Part shown: positions 1 to 10,276 of the stretch, piece by piece
How the letters are laid out: each line of letters opens with the position of its first letter
Numbering within the stretch: the first letter of the stretch is position 1
Origin: a virus
Direction: 5' to 3' (one strand)
DNA length: 64,000 bases
IMG/VR virus record: IMGVR_UViG_3300042868_003730
Coordinates: 1 to 64,000 of that record
Position numbers and translations under genes: made by a program
Notes under the pieces: model-generated
Told to the model about the DNA's origin: nothing
What the model saw: the letters and a program-made list of their open reading frames with translations, nothing else
Database searches by the model: none

Positions 1-2
1 GT

Positions 3-272
3 CGCTTTAGCGGTAAGCGCGAGTGGGAAGAGTGCTATGATGGTTGGGATCTAGCTGATGCTATTAAGGATCTAGGTTTTGTTCGTCCTGATGGCAAGAC
101 ACTGATTCAGCAGCCTCACCTGCGCTTTGATGACAAGCATATGTGGACTCTGGACCACGTTAAGGGATTCACTTTGGGCAGTCCGCTCAAGGCATTCCGT
201 GCCCTAACGCCTGAACAGCGTGAAGTGGCAGCAGCAGAATACCGTAAGGGATTCAAGGTCAATCCGATCTAA
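3..272 (+). CDS. 3' end of a hypothetical protein (truncated by window start)
   Basis: Open frame 3 from window start to TAA at 270-272 (RFSGKREWEECYDGWD...KVNPI*), followed by a strong hairpin. Confidence 0.6.
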   Translation, partial: RFSGKREWEECYDGWDLADAIKDLGFVRPDGKTLIQQPHLRFDDKHMWTLDHVKGFTLGSPLKAFRALTPEQREVAAAEYRKGFKVNPI

Positions 273-309
273 TGCTGATGGTATATCGGGGAGTTACATC
301 CCCGATATT

Positions 310-350
310 CATATAAAAACCCAGGACTAAACACCCTGGGTTTTTATATG
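310..350. terminator. Intrinsic (probably bidirectional) terminator
   Basis: Perfect 16-bp inverted repeat catataaaaacccagg / cctgggtttttatatg with A and T tracts. Confidence 0.7.
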
Positions 351-360
351 GATGTTAAAT

Positions 361-434
361 ACCAATGTAGTTCAAAGGTAGAACAATCGGCTGATAACCG
401 ATAAACGAAGGATCGTTACCTTCCGTTGGTACCA
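361..434 (+). tRNA. tRNA-Ile(GAT)
   Basis: Acceptor accaatg/cgttggt, anticodon arm atcgg-ctGATaa-ccgat, encoded CCA; atypical T-loop ATCGTTA. Confidence 0.8.
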
Positions 435-442
435 AGAATAAT

Positions 443-518
443 GGGGGATTAGCACAGTTGGGAGTGCGTCTGCTTTGCAAGCAGAAGGTCGTCGGTTCGA
501 TCCCGTCATCCTCCACCA
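443..518 (+). tRNA. tRNA-Ala(TGC)
   Basis: Cloverleaf, tctgc-ttTGCaa-gcaga, GGTTCGATCCC, CCA. Confidence 0.93.
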
Positions 519-532
519 TTAAATAGAAAATC

Positions 533-606
533 GCCCCCATAGTTAAGTGGTATAACAGTTGCCTTGTAAGCATCAGTTCGCAGTTCGATTCTGTGTGGGG
601 GCACCA
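533..606 (+). tRNA. tRNA-Thr(TGT)
   Basis: gccccca/tgggggc acceptor, ctTGTaa loop, GTTCGATT, CCA. Confidence 0.92.
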
Positions 607-612
607 AACATA

Positions 613-690
<78 letters not shown>

Positions 691-704
691 CTAAATAAAG
701 TTTT

Positions 705-781
705 CGGAGTGTAGCACAGCCTGATAGTGCGCCTGGTTTGGGACCAGGAGGTCCAAGGTTTGAATCCTTGTACTCCGACCA
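705..781 (+). tRNA. tRNA-Pro(TGG)
   Basis: cggagtg/tactccg acceptor, cctgg-ttTGGga-ccagg, CCA. Confidence 0.92.
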
Positions 782-799
782 ATTCATAAAGGAATGTAT

Positions 800-973
800 A
801 TGAGTGATGGTGGTAAAGGATCTGCGCCGAGACCATATAGCGTGAGCAATGAAGAATACGCTTCTCGCTGGGATATGATCTTCCGCAAGGATCAGAAAGA
901 ATCAGTTGATTTGACTAAAGAATCAGTCGATAGTCAGTCGAAACAGGAAGAAGAAAAGAAAGTGTCTCCTTAG
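800..973 (+). CDS. Small hypothetical protein (57 aa, MSDGGKGSAPRPYSVSNEEYASRWDMIF...)
   Basis: AAGGA Shine-Dalgarno upstream, open frame between two tRNAs; below ORF-track cutoff. Confidence 0.65.
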   Translation: MSDGGKGSAPRPYSVSNEEYASRWDMIFRKDQKESVDLTKESVDSQSKQEEEKKVSP

Positions 974-1037
974 TGTAACGGCAGCATACGGGTCTCCAAC
1001 ACCCTTGGTCGCGGTTCGAATCCGTGAGGAGATGCCA
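964..1037 (+). tRNA. tRNA-Trp(CCA)
   Basis: gtctcct/aggagat acceptor, ctCCAac loop, GGTTCGAATCC, CCA end. Confidence 0.9.
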
Positions 1038-1044
1038 AATATAT

Positions 1045-1119
1045 GCGGGTGTAACTCAGTGGTAGAGTGTCAGCCTTCCAAGCTGTTCGTCGCAGGTTCA
1101 ATCCCTGTCACCCGCTCCA
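1045..1119 (+). tRNA. tRNA-Gly(TCC)
   Basis: gcgggtg/cacccgc acceptor, ctTCCaa loop, TCCA end. Confidence 0.93.
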
Positions 1120-1120
1120 A

Positions 1121-3181
1121 TTATTTACTTGTCGCTCGATAAGTACCATCCCAATCAGTTGGCACTCCAGCTGACTTCATTTCATTGCAACGATCTATCC
1201 ACAGTTCGTAGTAATGATCCATCTGGCTCAAGAAAGAGCCTTTCAGTTCTTTACAGTAACGTATTGCTTCATCAAATTGTTGCGTACGGTAAAGTTCTAA
1301 CATCTTATTATGTTGTTGTGTCTCAAACACATATCCGGAATTTTGCATCATCCAGTCATGCCTTCCGACAACAGTAAAAATCCTAACTCCCTCTGTTTTT
1401 CCTTTTACTGCAATACAGTCTAGTTCTAGTAGTGCATATTCATCTTCTGTTTGTTGAGCAGTTAAGGTGCCAAGAATAATTCTTACACCATAGCCCTTAC
1501 TCTGACCTTCCAATCTAGATGCTAGGTTAACAGAGTCACCGAGACAAGTATAATCAAAACGCTGATTACTCCCCATATTCCCAACCACAACGACGCCAGT
1601 ATTGATGCCCAGACCCATACCAAAGGCAGGGATACCTTCTGGTTCAATTTCTCTATTAAATTCATCTAAACTCTCCATCATTTGTAGTGCTGTTTTCAAA
1701 GCCATCTTTGCATGGTTTGGTTCATCCAATGGTGCATTCCAGAAAGCCATCTGAGCATCACCGATATATTTGTCTAATGTTCCATTGTTCTCAATAATTT
1801 TTGCAGTCATCGCTGTCATATAGCGATTCATAATTTTGGTTAGTCCTTGTACATCTTTTCCATAGTGTTCAGATATTGCTGTGAAGCCTCGAACATCGGT
1901 GAACATAATGGATAACTCTCTTGACTCACCACCAAGTGTAAGTAGCTCAGGATTTCGTTGCAACTTTTCGACCAATGCGGGAGAGAGGTAGGTTCCGAAC
2001 TGTTTCTTGATTTGCAGTTTGGCATTGAGTTCAACAAGGAACTTGACAATGTACCCATGGAAAGAGACAATGGTAAGGGTAAGAATCGGGTACACAGCAT
2101 CAACCAAATAGCCTGATCGAACAAAGAGTTCATTACCTCCATAGTAGGTGCTGACGGCGAAGATGATTGCGAAGATGTATCCATGTTTGAACCTCGTAAG
2201 GTAGAGTGAAAGTATTACTGCTATTACGATGTATAGTAATTCTGCTCCAGTCGCCCAATCAGGTCTGGTGATGTTATCACCATTCAGTAGCGTGTCGATA
2301 ACTGCACCCTGCAGATAGTGCGGAAAGACTGCTCCTGCTGCGGTGGCTACTGGATTATTGAGTCCATTCGCAGTAAGACCTACAATTACAATACCACCAC
2401 CGAAGTCCTCTGGTAATTTCGCAAGAGAATGTTCGATTGGTTTGTGTTTCCAACTAACCCAGATTCTGCCCAGTTCATCTGTCTCGATCTTTCTGAATTG
2501 TGGAATGCGTACTGCTTCAATTCCTGTTGGGTTTACCTTTACCTGGAAAGATGGATCACCAGAAGCAACTCTCAACGTCTCAAGACTGATGCTTGGGTAT
2601 ATTTGATCTGCAACAGAAACCACCATTGGCATTCTTCGGGTAACACCATCAATTTCTGGTAGAGTGTTGACCACACCAATACCAGTGGCATTTTCATTTA
2701 CTGTTTGCACATTTGGCTGAATTGCCTTATAGTGTACACCAACATCACCCTCTCCGATAACTGACACACCTGGTCGGAATGCCTGTGTGACAGAATCAGT
2801 TATTTGATCATTTACTGCTAGGTGTGGGAATACTGTTGGGTTTTCTTTTAGTGCCTTACCTAGTTGAACATCTTGACCAAAGCGATCAGCATCTGGCAGG
2901 TAGACATTAAACACAACCAAGCCAGCATTACGATTATACAAATCTTGTATGATATTTGCATATTCATTTCTTGGGAAGGGGAACTGACCTTTTTCTCGAA
3001 TAAACTCATCGTCGATATTTACCACGTGCACTTGTTCAGAGACGGTGGTATCCTTTGTTAATAGTTGGTCGAAATATCGTAGTCTTACAGATTCGACAAA
3101 TCCAGGATCGTATATTCGAATAGCAACCATCAAAATCATTGTCAACAATGCAGTCCATGGCGATAATATATATTTCTTCAT
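1121..3181 (-). CDS. Membrane-bound CHASE2-domain class III adenylate cyclase
   Basis: N-terminal TM, CHASE2-like region (VVNIDD..FPFPRN..DGVTRRMP), three TM helices, cyclase motifs FTDVRGFT, DKYIGDA, DYTCLGDSVNLASRLEG, VKGK. Confidence 0.93.
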   Translation of the reverse strand: MKKYILSPWTALLTMILMVAIRIYDPGFVESVRLRYFDQLLTKDTTVSEQVHVVNIDDEFIREKGQFPFPRNEYANIIQDLYNRNAGLVVFNVYLPDADRFGQDVQLGKALKENPTVFPHLAVNDQITDSVTQAFRPGVSVIGEGDVGVHYKAIQPNVQTVNENATGIGVVNTLPEIDGVTRRMPMVVSVADQIYPSISLETLRVASGDPSFQVKVNPTGIEAVRIPQFRKIETDELGRIWVSWKHKPIEHSLAKLPEDFGGGIVIVGLTANGLNNPVATAAGAVFPHYLQGAVIDTLLNGDNITRPDWATGAELLYIVIAVILSLYLTRFKHGYIFAIIFAVSTYYGGNELFVRSGYLVDAVYPILTLTIVSFHGYIVKFLVELNAKLQIKKQFGTYLSPALVEKLQRNPELLTLGGESRELSIMFTDVRGFTAISEHYGKDVQGLTKIMNRYMTAMTAKIIENNGTLDKYIGDAQMAFWNAPLDEPNHAKMALKTALQMMESLDEFNREIEPEGIPAFGMGLGINTGVVVVGNMGSNQRFDYTCLGDSVNLASRLEGQSKGYGVRIILGTLTAQQTEDEYALLELDCIAVKGKTEGVRIFTVVGRHDWMMQNSGYVFETQQHNKMLELYRTQQFDEAIRYCKELKGSFLSQMDHYYELWIDRCNEMKSAGVPTDWDGTYRATSK

Positions 3182-4203
3182 TTTGATTGTTTGATGTTGA
3201 TCTTATTGGTTGTGAAATCCTGATTCTTTATATTTATTGTCTTGTTGTCTTGCGTCAACGTGATATCATACCCACGGTCTTTGCTAATTAACATCACGGC
3301 ATCCTGTCCCATATGGCGTTCAATTTGCCAGTAGTAGTTCTTGTCAAAAATGTAAACACTATTTGTTGAGTTGAAACCAACTGCAAACAAATTCATATCC
3401 AAATTATCTAATACATTTGTTAGATAATTGGAGTCAAGTGCATTGACATCTAATGAATTAAATTTCAAAGGATCAACATATGGTTTGAGGTCCAACGCAT
3501 TAAAATCCAATCCGTTAAATGATAATGCGTCTGCTCTTGATGATGTTTCCTGAACAATCTTTTCCATTATTTCTTTTGGCGGAGAAAGTATCATCATATT
3601 ATCAATTGCAGATTCTGATAATAACAAGAGAACTGGCTTGAGTGGTTTAATCTCAGACATTCTCGTTACTGTTGCCTGAAATGCCTGGTTAAGCAATACT
3701 GTTCCTGCAACAGTTTTCACTTCAATCTCACCAACTGATCCATCTACGTTTGGTAGAAGTATTATGGTTGAAGATCCGATCTCATCTACGGTCATAGTAA
3801 AGGCAGTGCCCCGAACTGCAATAGATGCAGTTGGGGTACTGATTGCTACATTCTTATTATTCTCATGGGCAACAGCACCTGATGCATAACGAACAGTGCC
3901 CAGAGCCACTCTCATCACTAACTTACCTGTGCCTTTAGATTTTGGGTCATAGACAAAATCATCAATAACTAATTTTGAATGCTCAATGACCCTAACCTTG
4001 GTGTTATCATCGAAAGTTATACCAATAACACCATTTACAGTTTCCACTTTATCCATAGGCTCGATGCCACCATTCATCTTGGCACCAATTTTGGATTTCT
4101 TTCTTTCTATTTCACCGCTGCCCTTTTCCTCAGTAATTGTTCCTATAGCAGCAAAACAATTAATGCTGAACGATAGTAGTAGAAGTACCAGAACCTGTGA
4201 CAT
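3178..4203 (-). CDS. Secreted FecR-domain protein
   Basis: Signal peptide; FecR-like motifs ITFDDNTKVRV, STPTASIAVRGTAF. Confidence 0.8.
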   Translation of the reverse strand: MSQVLVLLLLSFSINCFAAIGTITEEKGSGEIERKKSKIGAKMNGGIEPMDKVETVNGVIGITFDDNTKVRVIEHSKLVIDDFVYDPKSKGTGKLVMRVALGTVRYASGAVAHENNKNVAISTPTASIAVRGTAFTMTVDEIGSSTIILLPNVDGSVGEIEVKTVAGTVLLNQAFQATVTRMSEIKPLKPVLLLLSESAIDNMMILSPPKEIMEKIVQETSSRADALSFNGLDFNALDLKPYVDPLKFNSLDVNALDSNYLTNVLDNLDMNLFAVGFNSTNSVYIFDKNYYWQIERHMGQDAVMLISKDRGYDITLTQDNKTINIKNQDFTTNKINIKQSK

Positions 4204-4879
4204 TCAATGTGACCTGGTTAGGACGAGTTGTTCCATCCTGTGTTATAGATGCAGTATTGTTGCTGCCGATAATGTTACTCTTAAAAGAGTGTCCTGTCAC
4301 ATTTGAAGTACCATGCGCACCGATTTGTGTTGTGGTCATTGTATTTGAGTTCCCCACAATAACGACCTCATTGAATGTATACTTGCTATTGATGGTATTT
4401 GTAATAGTATTTGAACTTCCGGTGGCAGTCAATGAAAAGTTATAATTACCTGCGTTCGCCGACGTGCCCATATTCAAGTTATGGGTATTGTTGTCTCCGG
4501 TGTATGTCAGATTCAATAAACCAGAACTCGTACCGAAGTTTCCTTGGTTAAGAGTCAAACTGTTTCCATTACCTATTTGCGTGATGTTTGCAGTTGAATC
4601 ACCACCAATGAAGTTACCAATGATGGCGTTGTTCATTCCGTCCTGTATGATTGTGAGAAACATTGAGTTTCCGTCAATCTCGAATGCTGGGGTCAATAGA
4701 CTTGTTCTGTCTCCGACGCTGTTGTCTGACCCAGTTTGTGTAATGCTGACACTAGAGTTATCTGCATCGGTCTGGTCAATGTAAACGGAGTTACCACCAG
4801 AATCTGCCGCCATAGTCAATCCAGAGATCATCATAGTAGATATCGCTGTCATAACAATATTACGGTTAAGGGGTTTCAT
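4160..4879 (-). CDS. Curlin-repeat secreted protein (CsgA/CsgB-like)
   Basis: Signal peptide; N/G/T/S-rich repeats of type xxIxQxGxxN (SITQTGSDN, TIIQDGMNN, NITQIGNGN, SITQDG); directly downstream of csgG. Confidence 0.75.
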   Translation of the reverse strand: MKPLNRNIVMTAISTMMISGLTMAADSGGNSVYIDQTDADNSSVSITQTGSDNSVGDRTSLLTPAFEIDGNSMFLTIIQDGMNNAIIGNFIGGDSTANITQIGNGNSLTLNQGNFGTSSGLLNLTYTGDNNTHNLNMGTSANAGNYNFSLTATGSSNTITNTINSKYTFNEVVIVGNSNTMTTTQIGAHGTSNVTGHSFKSNIIGSNNTASITQDGTTRPNQVTLNVTGSGTSTTIVQH

Positions 4880-4899
4880 TTTAGTTTAATCCTTTTGTT

Positions 4900-5673
4900 T
4901 TATTTGAAAGTCCATAGTTCTTTTCTGCGTCCTTCATAAACCAATTCTTCAACTGCCAATTCAATCGCAGATTTAACTGCGAATACACCAGGTTCAGTTG
5001 AAGTTACACCAATCTCGTTTTCGAATGCCTCAGTTCCCTTCTTGAAGAATTTGAATGTTGATATTGAATTAGCAACACTCAAAATTGTTTTCTGTGTATT
5101 GACAGTAAGAATAACTTCACCTGTCTGTACGTTAATTGCTCGGAGTGAAATTGTTACAATATCTTCTTGGTAACTCGTTTGTGGTCCAATTCCCAAGTAT
5201 GCTACGCCGAAACCACCTGTCTTCTGGTTTGAGTCATAAGATACGATACTACCTTCAACAATCATACCTGCATAAAGTATTGGACGAAGTATGTTTTCTT
5301 CTTTTGCCTCATCTCTTGCACTTCTGATCAGTTGACGTTCTTTTAAGAGATTGTCCAAATTGACTCTCTCGACAATTCTAAACCACTTACCATCACCGAC
5401 ATCTGCCAGTGCCTTCAACAATAATGCCTCACCACCTTGCGTTACTGCGGATGAGAACTTGGCAATGGTGTTAGAATCTTTCTTCTGTCCTGTTTTATCT
5501 GTAAATGAATATACTGCAATAACAATTGGTTGCCCTTTAGCTGGCTCAGGAAATGGTCTTTTGAATTTCGTTGGTTGCATCAATTCAGCAGGTTTAGCAT
5601 TCTGCATGATTGGTGATGTTGAGCAACCAACAAGTAAAGAGGTTACACCAATGAGAAATATAATTCTTAACAT
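4900..5673 (-). CDS. csgG: Curli secretion channel lipoprotein CsgG-like
   Basis: Lipobox LLVGC; AVYSFTDKTGQ, SSAVTQG, WFRIVERVNLDNLLKERQLIR, EGSIVSYDSN motifs. Confidence 0.92.
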   Translation of the reverse strand: MLRIIFLIGVTSLLVGCSTSPIMQNAKPAELMQPTKFKRPFPEPAKGQPIVIAVYSFTDKTGQKKDSNTIAKFSSAVTQGGEALLLKALADVGDGKWFRIVERVNLDNLLKERQLIRSARDEAKEENILRPILYAGMIVEGSIVSYDSNQKTGGFGVAYLGIGPQTSYQEDIVTISLRAINVQTGEVILTVNTQKTILSVANSISTFKFFKKGTEAFENEIGVTSTEPGVFAVKSAIELAVEELVYEGRRKELWTFK

Positions 5674-6111
5674 TTACAGTCCAAATGTTCCAACAGGTAT
5701 AACTATCTGTGTCACATTTCCGTCTTTGTCCGTGACTGTCAAAGAAATCTGGTCTGCATTTCTCGTGTATTGAATCTTATTACCTTCTAGGTTTATAGTT
5801 CCACTATTCTGTGGATTCTCACCGAAAAGATTATTGACTAGTTGGGTTGAAAGTTGAGCATATACTCGACTCTCAAAGTTGTTTAAGAATTTCGCAAGAT
5901 TTGTATTTCCTTTGGCAGTCGCAGCGTCGATTACTGCCTGTTTCCTGGCGGAAATTATTGCTTGGTTTCTTGTGTATTCTGTGTTCTCAATAGTTTGGAT
6001 GTGCGAAGAATATCCAATACCAGTGAACTGAGGAGATTTGAATTGAAATACTTGTTGGGCGTATGTATTATTCGTCAGCAGTATTACTGTGCTTAGTAAT
6101 ATTCTTTTCAT
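5674..6111 (-). CDS. csgF: Curli assembly protein CsgF-like
   Basis: Signal peptide then FQFKSPQFTG (cf. CsgF N-terminal FxNPxFGG), C-terminal VTDKDGNVTQIVIP; adjacent to csgG. Confidence 0.85.
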   Translation of the reverse strand: MKRILLSTVILLTNNTYAQQVFQFKSPQFTGIGYSSHIQTIENTEYTRNQAIISARKQAVIDAATAKGNTNLAKFLNNFESRVYAQLSTQLVNNLFGENPQNSGTINLEGNKIQYTRNADQISLTVTDKDGNVTQIVIPVGTFGL

Positions 6112-6346
6112 TTTTGACTTCTCGCATCATCTGTACAATGTTAATCTTTTGGTTTAATCTAATTAAATCATTATCTAACATTCTGACGCGATCGATCATA
6201 GCAATCAAAACTGCACTGGCTTCACCCAAAACAGGTTTGATTTCTTGTGTCGCCCACTTCCATACATAATAAATAAGGTAACCCATCCCGCCTGCAGCGA
6301 CAATAGGAAACCCATATTTGTTTATCAATTCAGATATATCACTCAT
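6068..6346 (-). CDS. Small membrane protein (GFPI motif, TM plus coiled coil)
   Basis: ORF track; paralogous to 6448..6726. Confidence 0.75.
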   Translation of the reverse strand: MSDISELINKYGFPIVAAGGMGYLIYYVWKWATQEIKPVLGEASAVLIAMIDRVRMLDNDLIRLNQKINIVQMMREVKNEKNITKHSNTADE

Positions 6347-6467
6347 TTTTCATTTCTTGTTCTAGATACTCGGAAAGGCGATATAATTCAATAATCACTT
6401 CTTGTGTATCCAGATTATTCTTGCATTGTTCGAGCAGGTAAGTTATGTCAATCTTTCCTGGCATCAT
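6339..6467 (-). CDS. Possible 42-aa hypothetical protein (MMPGKIDITYLLEQCKNN...)
   Basis: Open frame that fills the gap and overlaps both neighbours. Confidence 0.35.
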   Translation of the reverse strand: MMPGKIDITYLLEQCKNNLDTQEVIIELYRLSEYLEQEMKNE

Positions 6468-6726
6468 TCTTCCCATCAGCTCTGGCAATTCTATCCACAT
6501 CAGGTTTTATTCCCAATGCATTTGACACCAAGGTATCGATTCTGATAACGTCATGGTTCATCGTTTTGACTCTGTTGTCAAGTGCTGAAATTATGCCGAT
6601 TAGACCCCTGACAGAACCCGTAACACCTGCTAGAATGAACTTTAGAGTAAGGAAAACGAAATAACCTGCCGCTATTGCTGCGGCAATTGGAAATCCAACT
6701 TCAGCGACAAGTTTAAAAAAATCCAT
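6448..6726 (-). CDS. Small membrane protein (GFPI motif, TM plus coiled coil)
   Basis: ORF track; first gene of the inverted cassette. Confidence 0.78.
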   Translation of the reverse strand: MDFFKLVAEVGFPIAAAIAAGYFVFLTLKFILAGVTGSVRGLIGIISALDNRVKTMNHDVIRIDTLVSNALGIKPDVDRIARADGKNDARKD

Positions 6727-6744
6727 TACTTTATTTCCCTATGC

Positions 6745-6753
6745 TTTATTTAG
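6745..6753 (-). promoter_or_regulatory. T4-type late promoter driving the csg/cyclase cassette
   Basis: CTAAATAAA on minus strand about 20 nt upstream of ATG 6726. Confidence 0.55.
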
Positions 6754-6809
6754 CTGTATTTGTAGGGTATACTATATACATGTTATGACTTTTCTTATTA
6801 AGGATTATT

Positions 6810-7058
6810 ATGAATTACATTCCAATGAATCGAAACATTATCGTGCGCTGTTCAGAAGGCTCGAAGATTACTGAGTCAGGTATCGTGCTGCAGAATTCAC
6901 AAGAACAAGAGATTGCAATTGTGATCGCAACTGCATCTGATGTTGATGAAGTTTCGATTGGTGACCGAGTTCTGGTGCATTGGCCAGACACGATCAAATT
7001 AGAACTCAACACATACAAAGTTCCGATGAATAATGTGTTGGCAGTTTACGAAGAATAA
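6810..7058 (+). CDS. groES: GroES-like co-chaperonin
   Basis: PMNRNIIVR..KITESGIVL..VSIGDRV Cpn10 pattern. Confidence 0.82.
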   Translation: MNYIPMNRNIIVRCSEGSKITESGIVLQNSQEQEIAIVIATASDVDEVSIGDRVLVHWPDTIKLELNTYKVPMNNVLAVYEE

Positions 7059-7059
7059 T

Positions 7060-7134
7060 GCCTTGTTAGCTCAGTGGTAGAGCGGCTCCTTTACACGGAG
7101 CGGGTCGGCGGTTCGAACCCGTCACAAGGTACCA
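7060..7134 (+). tRNA. tRNA-Val(TAC)
   Basis: gctcc-ttTACac-ggagc, GGTTCGAACCC, CCA. Confidence 0.93.
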
Positions 7135-7141
7135 TTATAAC

Positions 7142-7231
7142 GGAAGTGTGTCCGAGTGGTTTATGGATGCAGTCTTGAAAACTGCCGAATCAGAAATGGT
7201 TCCGTGAGTTCGAATCTCACCACTTCCTCCA
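7142..7231 (+). tRNA. tRNA-Ser(TGA)
   Basis: gcagt-ctTGAaa-actgc, long variable arm, CCA. Confidence 0.92.
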
Positions 7232-7244
7232 GAGTTGAGTTATT

Positions 7245-7403
7245 ATGAAAAGAATATGGGGTTTGTGGGCTAAGGCTCTTGGCGAGAAACAAGGGAAAAC
7301 TGATTCAGACGCAGACAAAGTCGCTCTGATAAGAACTGCCATTGTTCTATTCTATATAACAACCAATCTGTTTATTATTGCTGGTGTCGTAAGGCACTGG
7401 TAG
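7245..7403 (+). CDS. Small membrane protein (52 aa, MKRIWGLWAKALGEK...IAGVVRHW)
   Basis: Open frame with C-terminal TM segment; below ORF-track cutoff. Confidence 0.7.
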   Translation: MKRIWGLWAKALGEKQGKTDSDADKVALIRTAIVLFYITTNLFIIAGVVRHW

Positions 7404-7410
7404 GGAGAAT

Positions 7411-7482
7411 AAGACTCGGTCAGTACGGTGGGACGTGCAGGTGGACAACACATGGACAAGGTTCGAATCCAAACTGAGTTTT
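7411..7482 (+). ncRNA. Candidate tRNA-like structured RNA
   Basis: 10-bp terminal stem, three internal hairpins, GGTTCGAATCC element, no CCA and no normal anticodon arm. Confidence 0.35.
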
Positions 7483-7488
7483 TAGTAT

Positions 7489-7783
7489 GATCGTATGAAG
7501 TAATTAGAAATGAGTTCTGGACGCGGGTTCGATTCCCGCCAGCTCCACCAAAAGCATATTCTGGCTGGTATCGGCAGTAGCCAAAAGGTCTTAGTATGCT
7601 TTTGATGGGGCTGATCAGGTTTTCGACAGGGCGAAAAGTATATGCATGGACGATCCAGTAGGCGATGACTGTAAATCAAGCAAAACAACGTAAATGCAAA
7701 CGACAGCGTCTATGACGTCGCATTAGCTGCCTAAACTCAGCTTAGGGTTTCGGTGGGTTTCCTAGTAACAGAATTACCCACCA
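7489..7783 (+). ncRNA. ssrA: Circularly permuted (two-piece) tmRNA
   Basis: Acceptor piece ending GGTTCGATTCCCGCCAGCTCCACCA (7550) precedes coding piece starting GGGGCTGA (7607); tag frame ANDSVYDVALAA* at 7696-7734; intervening sequence closed by aaagcata/tatgcttt. Confidence 0.88.
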
Positions 7784-7791
7784 CTAACAAT

Positions 7792-7865
7792 TGGGGATTA
7801 GTTAAATGGTATAACATCGGATTTTGATTCCGAGATCACAAGTTCGATTCTTGTATCCCCTGCCA
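7792..7865 (+). tRNA. tRNA-Gln(TTG)
   Basis: tcgga-ttTTGat-tccga, GTTCGATT, GCCA. Confidence 0.92.
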
Positions 7866-7870
7866 GTAGT

Positions 7871-7878
7871 TATAAATA
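7871..7878 (+). promoter_or_regulatory. T4-type late promoter
   Basis: Exact TATAAATA 5 nt upstream of ATG 7884. Confidence 0.6.
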
Positions 7879-7883
7879 AACTT

Positions 7884-8639
7884 ATGACTATTCCAAAATA
7901 CAAAAGTATATTCATATCAGACGTACATCTAGGTACGAAAGACTGCAAAGCAGCGACACTTAATGATTTTCTAAAGAACAACAGCTGCGAAACTCTATAC
8001 CTCGTCGGTGACATTATCGATGGCTGGAGGATTCAACAGAACAAGTGGCGGTGGAAACAAAGCCACACCAATGTTATTCGGAGAATCCTAGGTTGTTCAA
8101 AGGACGGTACGAAGGTAATATACATTGCCGGAAACCATGATGAATTCCTAAGACCACTGTTATCCTATCACATTGGATTTGGTCTCGTAGAGATAGCCAA
8201 TCAGTACGAGCACATTGGAGTTGATGGTAAGAAATACCTCGTAGTCCATGGTGATCTATTCGATGGTATTACCAGACTAGCACCTTGGCTCTCATTCCTC
8301 GGTGATCGCGCATATGATTTTATTCTTAGCGCAAATACTAAGTTAAACTGGGTAAGAAGAAAACTTGGATTTGGCTACTGGAGTTTAAGCAGATTCCTAA
8401 AGTATAAAGTAAAGAAAGCAATTGATTTTGTTTTCCACTTTGAAAAGAATATCGCAAAGTACTGCGCCAAACGAGGTTTTGATGGAGTTATCTGTGGCCA
8501 TATCCATCATGCAGAAATCAAAAACATCGATGGTGTTGTTTATATGAATGATGGTGACTGGGTAGAATCGTGTACGGCATTAGTTGAGCACCACGACGGA
8601 ACCTGGGAAATAATTATGTGGAATCCGCAGGATGAATGA
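7884..8639 (+). CDS. LpxH-family metallophosphoesterase, PlcP (phospholipase C)-like
   Basis: SDVHLG, GDIIDGW, GNHD, HGD, CGHIH, NDGDWVES motifs; start moved to ATG 7884 because the track start lies inside tRNA-Gln. Confidence 0.85.
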   Translation: MTIPKYKSIFISDVHLGTKDCKAATLNDFLKNNSCETLYLVGDIIDGWRIQQNKWRWKQSHTNVIRRILGCSKDGTKVIYIAGNHDEFLRPLLSYHIGFGLVEIANQYEHIGVDGKKYLVVHGDLFDGITRLAPWLSFLGDRAYDFILSANTKLNWVRRKLGFGYWSLSRFLKYKVKKAIDFVFHFEKNIAKYCAKRGFDGVICGHIHHAEIKNIDGVVYMNDGDWVESCTALVEHHDGTWEIIMWNPQDE

Positions 8640-9651
8640 TCGCAAGACAATTCTTATTATCACTGATAACTTACCGGACCAAATAAATGGCGTCGTTACA
8701 ACTTTCAAAAACATTGAAACGTATGCTGATCGTGATGGGTTTGATATTGTTTATCTTGATCCCAGGCAGTTCAATTATATTAGTTGTCCTGGCTATGCTG
8801 ACATTAAACTCTCAATCCCGATTAAGATTGGAAAAAAGATTGAGAGCATATCTCCTGATTTTATCCACATTGCTACGGAAGGTCCAATCGGATTTTTCTC
8901 GCGATGTTACCTGGATAAGAAAAGGATAAAGTACAATACAAGTTATCATACAAAGTTCCCTGAGTTTCTGAAGGAGTTATATGGTATTCCAGAATGTATC
9001 AGTTACGCATACTTTCGCTGGTTCCACAAACACAGTGGGAAAGTTCTAACCACTACAAAGACCATGGTCCAAGAACTGGAAGAACATGGATTTGGTTCTA
9101 GAATAATCCCATGGACTCGCGGAGTTGACAGAAATATATTTGACAAATCTCTTCGATCACAGTATAATGGTAAGGTGTTACTAAGCGTAGGTAGGGTAAG
9201 TAAAGAGAAAGGTATCGAGGATTTCTGTTCTCTGGACTGCTCGAATGGTGGCATTAAGAAAATAGTAGTTGGTGATGGTCCATTGCGAAAAGAATTACAG
9301 GCAAAATATCCAGATGTGGAGTTCGTCGGTACGAAACGAGGAAAAGAATTAGCAGAGTATTATGCCAATGCAGATGTGTTTGTCTTTACGAGTAGGGTTG
9401 ATACTTTCGGTATCGTGATAATTGAAGCATTATCAATGGGTACTCCAGTAGCAGCATATAAAGTTCCTGGACCAATTGATATTATTGAACCTGGTGTCAA
9501 TGGATTTATAGGTGAAGATCTTGTTGATAGTATAAATAGCTGTTTAACACTCGATCGAGATTTGGTTGAGAAGTCAAGTAGTAAGTGGTCTTGGCAAGAA
9601 TGCTGGAATATATTCAAAGAAAATCTAATTTCTGTTCAGAGAGTCGGCTAA
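8632..9651 (+). CDS. GT4 (GT-B) glycosyltransferase, Agt-like glycolipid synthase candidate
   Basis: QINGVVTT, IHIATEGPIG, YHTKFPE, GRVSKEK, DTFGIVIIEAL..GTPV motifs. Confidence 0.88.
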   Translation: MNDRKTILIITDNLPDQINGVVTTFKNIETYADRDGFDIVYLDPRQFNYISCPGYADIKLSIPIKIGKKIESISPDFIHIATEGPIGFFSRCYLDKKRIKYNTSYHTKFPEFLKELYGIPECISYAYFRWFHKHSGKVLTTTKTMVQELEEHGFGSRIIPWTRGVDRNIFDKSLRSQYNGKVLLSVGRVSKEKGIEDFCSLDCSNGGIKKIVVGDGPLRKELQAKYPDVEFVGTKRGKELAEYYANADVFVFTSRVDTFGIVIIEALSMGTPVAAYKVPGPIDIIEPGVNGFIGEDLVDSINSCLTLDRDLVEKSSSKWSWQECWNIFKENLISVQRVG

Positions 9652-9652
9652 T

Positions 9653-10276
9653 ATGAATATCACAAAAGAACAACTAAAACAAATCATTCCAAAAAATCCA
9701 TACGTGGATCATTGGCATGGTGTGTTATCTAAACTATTCCCAGATTATGGAATTGACACTCCAGCCAGAATGGCATCATTCTTGGCTCAATGTGTCCATG
9801 AATCTGGTGGATTCACTACCCTTAAAGAAAATCTAAATTATAGACCAGTAACTCTTCGGAAGATTTTCGGAAAGTATTTCCCCACGGATGCACTGGCTGA
9901 GGAGTATTGCAGCAAGCCAAACAAGCAGGAAGCAATTGCCAATCGAGTTTATGCCAATCGTATGGGTAATGGTGACGAGGCGAGTGGTGATGGTTTTCGT
10001 TACTGTGGAAGAGGTCTTATTCAGTTAACTGGTAGGGACAATTACTCATGGTTTGCTGCGAGTATAGAAATCAGTCCAGAAGATGCATCAGAGTATCTTC
10101 AGACGTTTGAGGGTGCTGCGCAATCTGCTTGCTGGTTCTGGGAAAGCAACAATTTAAATACGTTTGCCGATGCGGGAGACCTTCTTACAATGACCAAGCG
10201 CATCAATGGTGGTACAATCGGAATGGAACATAGAAAACACGAATACGAACACGCAATGAAAGTATTCGGAGGTTGA
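9653..10276 (+). CDS. Glycoside hydrolase family 19 endolysin
   Basis: FLAQCVHESGGF, ENLNY, GRGLIQLTGRDNY, TKRINGG. Confidence 0.92.
   Translation: MNITKEQLKQIIPKNPYVDHWHGVLSKLFPDYGIDTPARMASFLAQCVHESGGFTTLKENLNYRPVTLRKIFGKYFPTDALAEEYCSKPNKQEAIANRVYANRMGNGDEASGDGFRYCGRGLIQLTGRDNYSWFAASIEISPEDASEYLQTFEGAAQSACWFWESNNLNTFADAGDLLTMTKRINGGTIGMEHRKHEYEHAMKVFGG

Follow-up and report, generated by a model that had tools for sequence, protein, structure and literature searches.

Curli secretion genes of phages are the subject of several published accounts. Zaragoza-Solas et al. (2020; PMC7029224) described in pelagimyophages an operon of csgF and csgG with a curli-associated protein and two hypotheticals, and proposed "sibling capture" for it; Buchholz et al. 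(2022; PMC9004378) proposed a gated pore that would time lysis; and Wittmers et al. (2022; PMC9599517) delineated the full region in SAR11 podo- and myophages—one or two genes labeled histidine kinase ("HK"), CsgF, CsgG, CsgA/B, FecR, often a second CsgA/B, and an adenylate cyclase (AC)—inferred alphaproteobacterial origins, and discussed aggregation, a shield against superinfection, and import. Transcripts of this viral type VIII secretion system (T8SS) were detected at sea in metatranscriptomes (PMC9599517). Here we analyze the corresponding element in IMG/VR record IMGVR_UViG_3300042868_003730, a complete virus of 147,921 bp with direct terminal repeats, whose first 64 kb (the window in what follows) carry at 1121–6726, on the minus strand, a block of seven solid genes plus one doubtful open reading frame (ORF) of 53 aa. 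The gene content of this phage is T4-like, its nearest cultured relatives belong to the Kyanoviridae, and its G+C content is about 42%.

That this block is a viral curli (T8SS) region we regard as nearly certain. From its head onward the genes encode the small transmembrane (TM) protein sTM1 and its paralogue sTM2, CsgF, CsgG, a curlin-like protein, a protein of the FecR fold, and an adenylate cyclase bearing a CHASE2 domain; and all six of the assignments for which the first-pass annotation of the window had proposed a check with hidden Markov models—CsgG, CsgF, Curlin_rpt, FecR, CHASE2, and Guanylate_cyc—scored above the curated Pfam cut-offs. The best explanation overall, which we consider moderately probable, is that of a viral curli region combining the export of a fibre with an envelope sensor that signals through cyclic AMP (cAMP). 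As a find the block is not new, contrary to the first-pass annotation, the region having already been described with its FecR, cyclase, and fibre genes included (PMC9599517). What is new relative to the published accounts is the support for an origin from two units, the dropping of the "HK" label, a conserved TAAATA core upstream of the block, and a compact variant with a single curlin gene, carried by a phage whose permuted transfer-messenger RNA is of the beta type.

Gene order, promoter, and recurrence in phages

The minus-strand genes are indeed tightly coupled between tRNA-Gly and groES, as had been claimed, no gap exceeding 20 nt: the overlaps deduced from the coordinates are 53, 8, 44, 0, 44, and 4 nt, to which a single 20-nt gap has to be added. 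The FecR stop and the cyclase start overlap by 4 nt, the second curlin gene between them being absent. The doubtful 53-aa ORF (6339–6500, minus strand), which shares 53 nt with the end of sTM1 and 8 nt with the start of sTM2, has no family match and a counterpart in only the closest relative (L003 in our own numbering of loci; 67% identity). The tRNA-Gly gene (1045–1119, plus strand) flanks the cyclase end of the block, and a GroES-like gene (6810–7058, plus strand; Cpn10, 23.3 bits; PHROG co-chaperonin, 1e-7) diverges from its head. Among the Pfam matches of the cassette we saw no csgE, csgC, or csgD domain, in agreement with the first-pass annotation, and neither an extracytoplasmic-function (ECF) sigma factor nor a TonB-dependent transducer; a scan for sigma-70 promoters and terminators returned nothing interpretable within the block. 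Two tRNA clusters on the plus strand bracket the inverted block, at 361–1119 (seven tRNAs: Ile, Ala, Thr, Met, Pro, Trp, and Gly) and at 7060–7231 (Val and Ser), and the cyclase stop codon lies 1 nt away from the end of the tRNA-Gly on the opposite strand.

A megablast of the block against isolate phages gave no match, relatives being found at only the protein level. At that level the same gene order appears, with 37–45% protein identity, in Pelagibacter phage HTVC008M (KC465899, 7562–13807) and Methylophilales phage Melnitz (MZ577097, 50118–56876), both having T4-like (Kyanoviridae) genomes, with both small TM proteins included in the syntenic block. These two phages differ from ours in carrying an extra gene (of 338 or 441 aa) between FecR and cyclase, which gene is annotated in Melnitz as a curlin repeat protein, and in having the block co-oriented with its neighbours, whereas here the block is inverted between tRNA clusters. 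With respect to the pelagiphage T8SS in general, the present phage has the same genes in the same order, likewise without CsgC, CsgD, or CsgE, and with the same alphaproteobacterial affinities; but the second curlin gene that is frequent between FecR and cyclase in myophages is missing here, and the identity to the cultured examples is only that 37–45%.

The linkage among phages is strict. The same order was found in 28 of the 28 related viral IMG/VR contigs long enough to show it, though one phage subgroup has both small genes on the other strand, downstream of the cyclase yet still adjoining the block. When the loci were anchored on sTM1 instead (31 loci flanked on each side by 8 kb or more), the cyclase was located within 10 kb of sTM1 in all 31 and CsgG in 26, the other five having a convergent layout that extends beyond the stretch fetched. 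The first-pass annotation had staked its proposal on these genes keeping company, and keeping their synteny, in other genomes; and so they do.

A late-promoter-like core, CTAAATAAA, occupies 6745–6753 on the minus strand, 20 nt before the first ATG of the block. The claim that the cassette is headed by a late promoter is upheld by comparison among phages and not by counts within the window, where neither CTAAATA (13 found versus 9.6 expected) nor TATAAATA occurs in excess over chance. Upstream of the sTM1 homologues in related phage contigs, 55 of 85 distinct 60-nt stretches contain TAAATA, a count that no other of the 15 permutations of these letters reaches; most of the sites are situated 17–37 nt from the ATG, with TATAAATA as the commonest extension. 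Because TAAATA is conserved in that position, the block is likely transcribed late.

The encoded proteins

The CsgG of the block (4900–5673, minus strand; PF03783, 182.6 bits versus a cut-off of 20.8, 7.9e-54) aligns over its full length with E. coli CsgG (1.2e-47) and retains an intact lipobox, LVGC17, whose C17 is invariant across 11 viral homologues. When the constriction residues of E. coli CsgG, which we take to be Y51, N55, and F56, were aligned to the phage protein, the Phe was found to be kept (F73), while Ser stands for the Tyr and Lys for the Asn; in the relatives the F73 position is occupied by either Phe or Leu. CsgF (5674–6111, minus strand; PF10614, 58.4 bits versus a cut-off of 25.8, 1.1e-15) has a signal peptide followed, at the mature N-terminus, by FQFKSPQF—a motif that is conserved in the relatives and presumably corresponds to the FQFRNPNF of E. 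coli CsgF, the N-terminus that binds CsgG.

The candidate substrate that the first-pass annotation had pointed out is likewise present in the curlin-like protein (4160–4879, minus strand), whose score for PF07012 (Curlin_rpt) is 21.5 bits. The gene, which is single copy in the complete genome, encodes a signal peptide and a mature part consisting of 55% Thr, Asn, Ser, and Gly; the sole sequence match in the PDB was the major curlin, CsgA (8enq; E 0.0023), with several repeat matches. An AlphaFold (AF2) model computed with 14 homologues, with a predicted local distance difference test (pLDDT) score of 80, is all-beta with 7-residue strands and 4-residue turns, and the top match of that model in VIA-align was the CsgA from Pontibacter (8c50_A; Z 18.1, root-mean-square deviation [rmsd] 8.7 Å, 190 residues aligned, 22% identity). 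On weak sequence evidence and this model, the protein is probably a secreted, CsgA-like beta-solenoid.

The FecR-fold protein (3178–4203, minus strand; 341 aa; PF04773, 29.7 bits versus a cut-off of 24, 9.1e-7) was modeled as a signal peptide, a beta domain at approximately residues 20–204, a low-confidence linker (205–270), and a C-terminal beta domain (275–341). Residues 48–204 match the periplasmic signaling domain (CCSSD) of PupR (6ovk_R; Z 15.1, rmsd 2.8 Å, 137 residues aligned), and residues 17–112 match the cell-surface anchoring domain of MpIBP (5ix9; Z 7.6, 25% identity). The phage protein thus has the fold of the periplasmic domain in common with the FecR/PupR anti-sigma regulators but differs from them in lacking the cytoplasmic anti-sigma domain—the N-terminus consisting of a 20-residue signal-peptide-like segment and then the beta domain—and in having no anchor beyond that signal peptide. 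Searches for relatives were dominated by viral sequences (more than 5,600 matches, with 127 clusters below 1e-30 among the 50% representatives) and yielded no cellular setting for the gene. We rejected the iron-regulation reading of the name "FecR" since the anti-sigma domain and the partners are missing; the protein belongs with the cyclase and not with the uptake of iron.

The cyclase (1121–3181, minus strand) matches CHASE2 at residues 16–325 (PF05226, 119.4 bits versus a cut-off of 26.3, 2.6e-34) and Guanylate_cyc at residues 421–597 (PF00211, 74.3 bits versus 21.9, 1.2e-20). Its architecture comprises a TM segment, the periplasmic CHASE2 domain, three further TM segments, the class III cyclase domain, and a C-terminal helical tail; hydrophobic segments were located at residues 5–29, 308–331, and 365–383, with a further one at 332–352 read from the sequence by eye. 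The catalytic site is intact: in the alignment to CyaC (1wc1), CyaB, and other solved cyclases, all six catalytic residues are present, namely D429 and D475 for the metal, K471 and T545 for the substrate, and N552 and R556 for the transition state, the numbering of the CyaC residues in this comparison being the one that we assume. Because all six align with those of solved class III cyclases, we predict an active, ATP-specific enzyme, and we also predict a cytoplasmic location for its catalytic domain. Membership in a defence system, as considered through PADLOC, was rejected, for only Pycsar cyclases were matched and the generic class III fold is what they have in common.

Of the small proteins, both of 92 aa, sTM1 (6448–6726, minus strand; phrog_18771, 4.6e-35; no Pfam family) has an N-terminal hydrophobic segment and a C-terminal coiled coil, and sTM2 (6068–6346, minus strand; phrog_18771, 5.7e-31) a TM segment and a coiled coil, with the columns GFP...G...R..D.IR common to the two in their alignment. 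Conservation within the block is highest for sTM1, with 84–95% identity where CsgG and the cyclase have about 45–48%, and suggests a fixed interaction partner; the corresponding range for the neighbouring GroES-like gene is 37–52%. More than 577 relatives of sTM1 were found in IMG/VR, some of them on contigs of 235–349 kb. The published "HK" label does not suit proteins of this kind, and we rejected it on account of their 92 aa, of a PDB profile search that gave coiled-coil-type matches only, and of the lack of any Pfam kinase domain (HisKA or HATPase_c) in 20 sTM homologues, even at E ≤ 1. Other matches were weak: a 21-residue match of sTM2 to the holin phrog_4898 (4.3e-4), and matches to YvrJ with a best E of 0.07. 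Both sTM1 and sTM2 are phage-specific TM/coiled-coil proteins that never leave the block.

Bacterial relatives and the host

In a sample of 401 Alphaproteobacteria, CsgG homologues occurred in eight, one of which is a bin with phage contigs. At the seven bacterial csgG loci, csgF adjoins csgG in six, and the curlin genes match the phage curlin profile; at one locus (L128), csgF, csgG, and the gene of a 240-aa curlin follow one another as in the phage. These operons resemble the phage block in the F-then-G order, the adjacent curlin genes, and the absence of csgE, csgC, and csgD, with CsgG proteins that are 40–50% identical, but their curlin genes are often multiple or far longer. None of the seven loci contains a FecR, cyclase, or sTM gene.

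Homologues of the cyclase (E ≤ 1e-60) are present in 136 of the same 401 Alphaproteobacteria, where CHASE2 cyclases have the architecture of the phage enzyme at 37–44% identity. A FecR-like ORF lies within 8 kb of the cyclase at 7 of the 29 closest bacterial loci, and in 5 of these 7 within 150 nt of the cyclase ORF; if a 4-Mb genome has a few FecR genes, as we estimate, position alone would account for such a neighbour in about 1%. The bacterial FecR partners measure from 251 aa to over 2000 aa, whereas the phage partner, at 341 aa, is exported and encoded after the curlin gene. Neither csgG nor a curlin gene was found at the 29 loci. The two units accordingly have separate ancestries among the bacteria sampled; and because the seven csg loci lack FecR and cyclase while the 29 cyclase loci lack csgG and curlin, the phage block represents a fusion of two bacterial units that are unseen together in the sampled cells. 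For Sinorhizobium meliloti, the CHASE2 cyclase CyaD1 and the FecR-domain protein SMc02177 have been discussed together (PMC5498481).

At one of the alphaproteobacterial loci (L104; G389:C465), the gene of an RTX adhesin (2–6265, minus strand) is divergent from that of a CHASE2 cyclase (6283–8721, plus strand). The adhesin, of at least 2088 aa, has a FecR-like domain near the N-terminus, immunoglobulin- and cadherin-like domains, and eleven RTX repeats, and is of the type I-secreted kind. Similar pairs of a FecR-domain protein and a cyclase were observed at L107, L109, L111, L120, and L124. Such bacterial neighbours may constitute an unstudied adhesin-to-cAMP signaling pair.

A scan of bacterial genomes for CsgG yielded five loci, four of them with other genes of the viral block, only L037 looking bacterial; and the phage-specific sTM pair is present on three loci (L034, L036, and L038) from metagenome-assembled genomes (MAGs). 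Contigs with the viral block, one of 142 kb, are contained in MAGs labeled as Rhodobacteraceae, Pirellulales, Sphingobacteriales, and Pelagibacter (C129, C173, C200, C240, and C87 of G001, the Rhodobacteraceae bin; also L035, L036, and L038). These seem to be phage contigs that ended up in cellular bins, and a search for the bacterial origin of the block could be led astray by them.

Beyond the GroES-like gene and the second tRNA cluster, the window contains a circularly permuted two-piece transfer-messenger RNA (tmRNA) at 7444–7804 on the plus strand, with the tag ANDSVYDVALAA, which matches the betaproteobacterial model RF01850 at 112 bits and RF04321 at 137.5 bits; a tRNA-Gln called by ARAGORN (7792–7865) overlaps its 3' end. 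The tmRNA of Melnitz was reported as alpha-type, unlike the beta-type one here. The type of the tmRNA may hint at a betaproteobacterial host, and because of this beta-type permuted tmRNA and the G+C content of about 42% the host may not be SAR11. Further on, at 7824–9651 (plus strand), a gene for a calcineurin-like phosphoesterase (Metallophos, 8.5e-13) overlaps one for a GT4 glycosyltransferase, with an exact TATAAATA at 7871, just before this pair; the ORF at 9653–10276 (207 aa) had no Pfam match.

Working of the block and alternative explanations

Because the mechanism that we propose, fibre export plus cAMP-based envelope sensing, rests on homology and linkage, we infer it tentatively and would call it possible rather than probable. 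The first unit would be a minimal alpha-type curli apparatus, with CsgG, CsgF, and the curlin exported by Sec; the lipoprotein CsgG would form an outer-membrane channel capped by CsgF, and the curlin, secreted through that channel, would polymerize into a fibre on the surface of the infected cell. The second unit would be a bacterial sensor pair in which the exported FecR-fold protein acts on CHASE2 in the periplasm, so that cAMP synthesis in the cytoplasm would be governed by envelope state. The input to this second unit might be the secretion load, the occupancy of the pore, or a tail of the FecR-fold protein acting as a tether, or else a cue from outside. Because the phage has no cyclic-nucleotide (cNMP)-binding protein, any effect of the cAMP would have to pass through host factors, in the form of host receptors. 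The first-pass annotation had gone further, joining all the parts into one continuous envelope-spanning machine with the FecR protein as the coupler between surface and cyclase; such a coupling is conjectural, and the FecR/CHASE2 pair and the csg operon are apart in the sampled bacteria.

Several observations weigh against this mechanism. The curlin-like protein barely passes the Pfam cut-off of 20.7 bits; Foldseek searches of the PDB with its model gave no significant match; and the rmsd to CsgA is high, with generic beta-helices scoring nearly as well (Z about 17). A separate CsgB-like nucleator was not found, the complete genome having one curlin gene, and the model of the FecR-fold protein, with a pLDDT of 65, is of moderate confidence. 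No cNMP-binding (cAMP receptor) domain PF00027 is encoded in the phage genome, and with late expression little time would remain for cAMP to act through transcription. Finally, no clumping was observed among cells infected by Melnitz (PMC9004378).

Among the competing explanations, the one that we find unlikely, but less so than the rest, is that the fibre-export and the cAMP-sensing genes are two independent units of cargo that have neither a physical nor a regulatory link. Their being together in none of the 29 bacterial cyclase loci and in none of the 7 bacterial csg loci would agree with such independence, as would the rearrangements and the extra genes between FecR and cyclase in some phages; the linkage in phages is, however, near absolute, the FecR gene always follows and overlaps the curlin gene, and the published gene-frequency ratios are close to 1 across 65 ocean stations (PMC9599517). 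A somewhat poorer prospect is that CsgG and CsgF form a pinholin- or secretin-like gated channel for the timing of lysis, the curlin not being a fibre subunit. This idea, proposed by Buchholz et al. (PMC9004378), is in keeping with the position of the block behind a late-type promoter, with the change of two of the three E. coli constriction residues (Tyr to Ser and Asn to Lys), and with the weak match of 21 residues between sTM2 and a holin PHROG (4e-4). Against it, the membrane in which CsgG forms its channel is the outer one, not the inner one that holins and pinholins target, and every copy of the block has a curlin with a signal peptide and a predicted CsgA-like fold. Moreover, sTM1 is 84–95% conserved across lineages, whereas holins are usually very diverse.

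The MpIBP match and the bacterial adhesin bring to mind a trans-envelope tether, in which the FecR-fold protein would be a stand-alone periplasmic retention plug of the RTX-adhesin type, docked on CHASE2, with its linker and C-terminal domain threaded out through CsgG. We deem this improbable: the similarity of residues 17–112 to the anchoring domain, the occurrence beside a bacterial CHASE2 cyclase of an RTX adhesin of at least 2088 aa having a FecR-like domain near its N-terminus, and the long linker, modeled at low confidence, that precedes a small C-terminal domain speak for it, but the Z of 7.6 is a middling score, and one phage subgroup (L029–L032) lacks the linker or has a different one. 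If the plug reading were true, the infected cell would have a mechanical or contact sensor that spans its outer membrane and sets its cAMP, and the bacterial pairs of adhesin and CHASE2 cyclase would work likewise. Least probable of all, in our judgment, is that the CsgG pore, having no CsgE gate, admits small solutes or cofactors to the periplasm of the infected cell, the FecR-fold protein and the cyclase reporting their entry. Import was suggested in two of the earlier accounts (PMC7029224; PMC9599517), and CsgE is indeed absent from the cassette; this notion nevertheless leaves the conserved curlin and CsgF unexplained and is at odds with a FecR protein devoid of an anti-sigma domain in a cassette devoid of a TonB-dependent transducer and of an ECF sigma factor. 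Moreover, the nearest FecR proteins beside such cyclases in bacteria include a large RTX adhesin rather than regulators of iron uptake.

We accordingly retain fibre export plus cAMP-based envelope sensing as the preferred explanation for the viral curli region, at the strength stated for it above. The ideas of aggregation or of a shield against superinfection, and of lysis timing, which the first-pass annotation had put forward for the infected cell, stand as published proposals (PMC9599517; PMC9004378) and fall as new ones, and for this window the value of the analysis is mostly confirmatory. According to published accounts, known hosts such as SAR11 and OM43 are without such an envelope function. 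Aquatic phages carry the block in abundance, and its role is relevant to the ways in which phages alter host surfaces, aggregation, and signaling.

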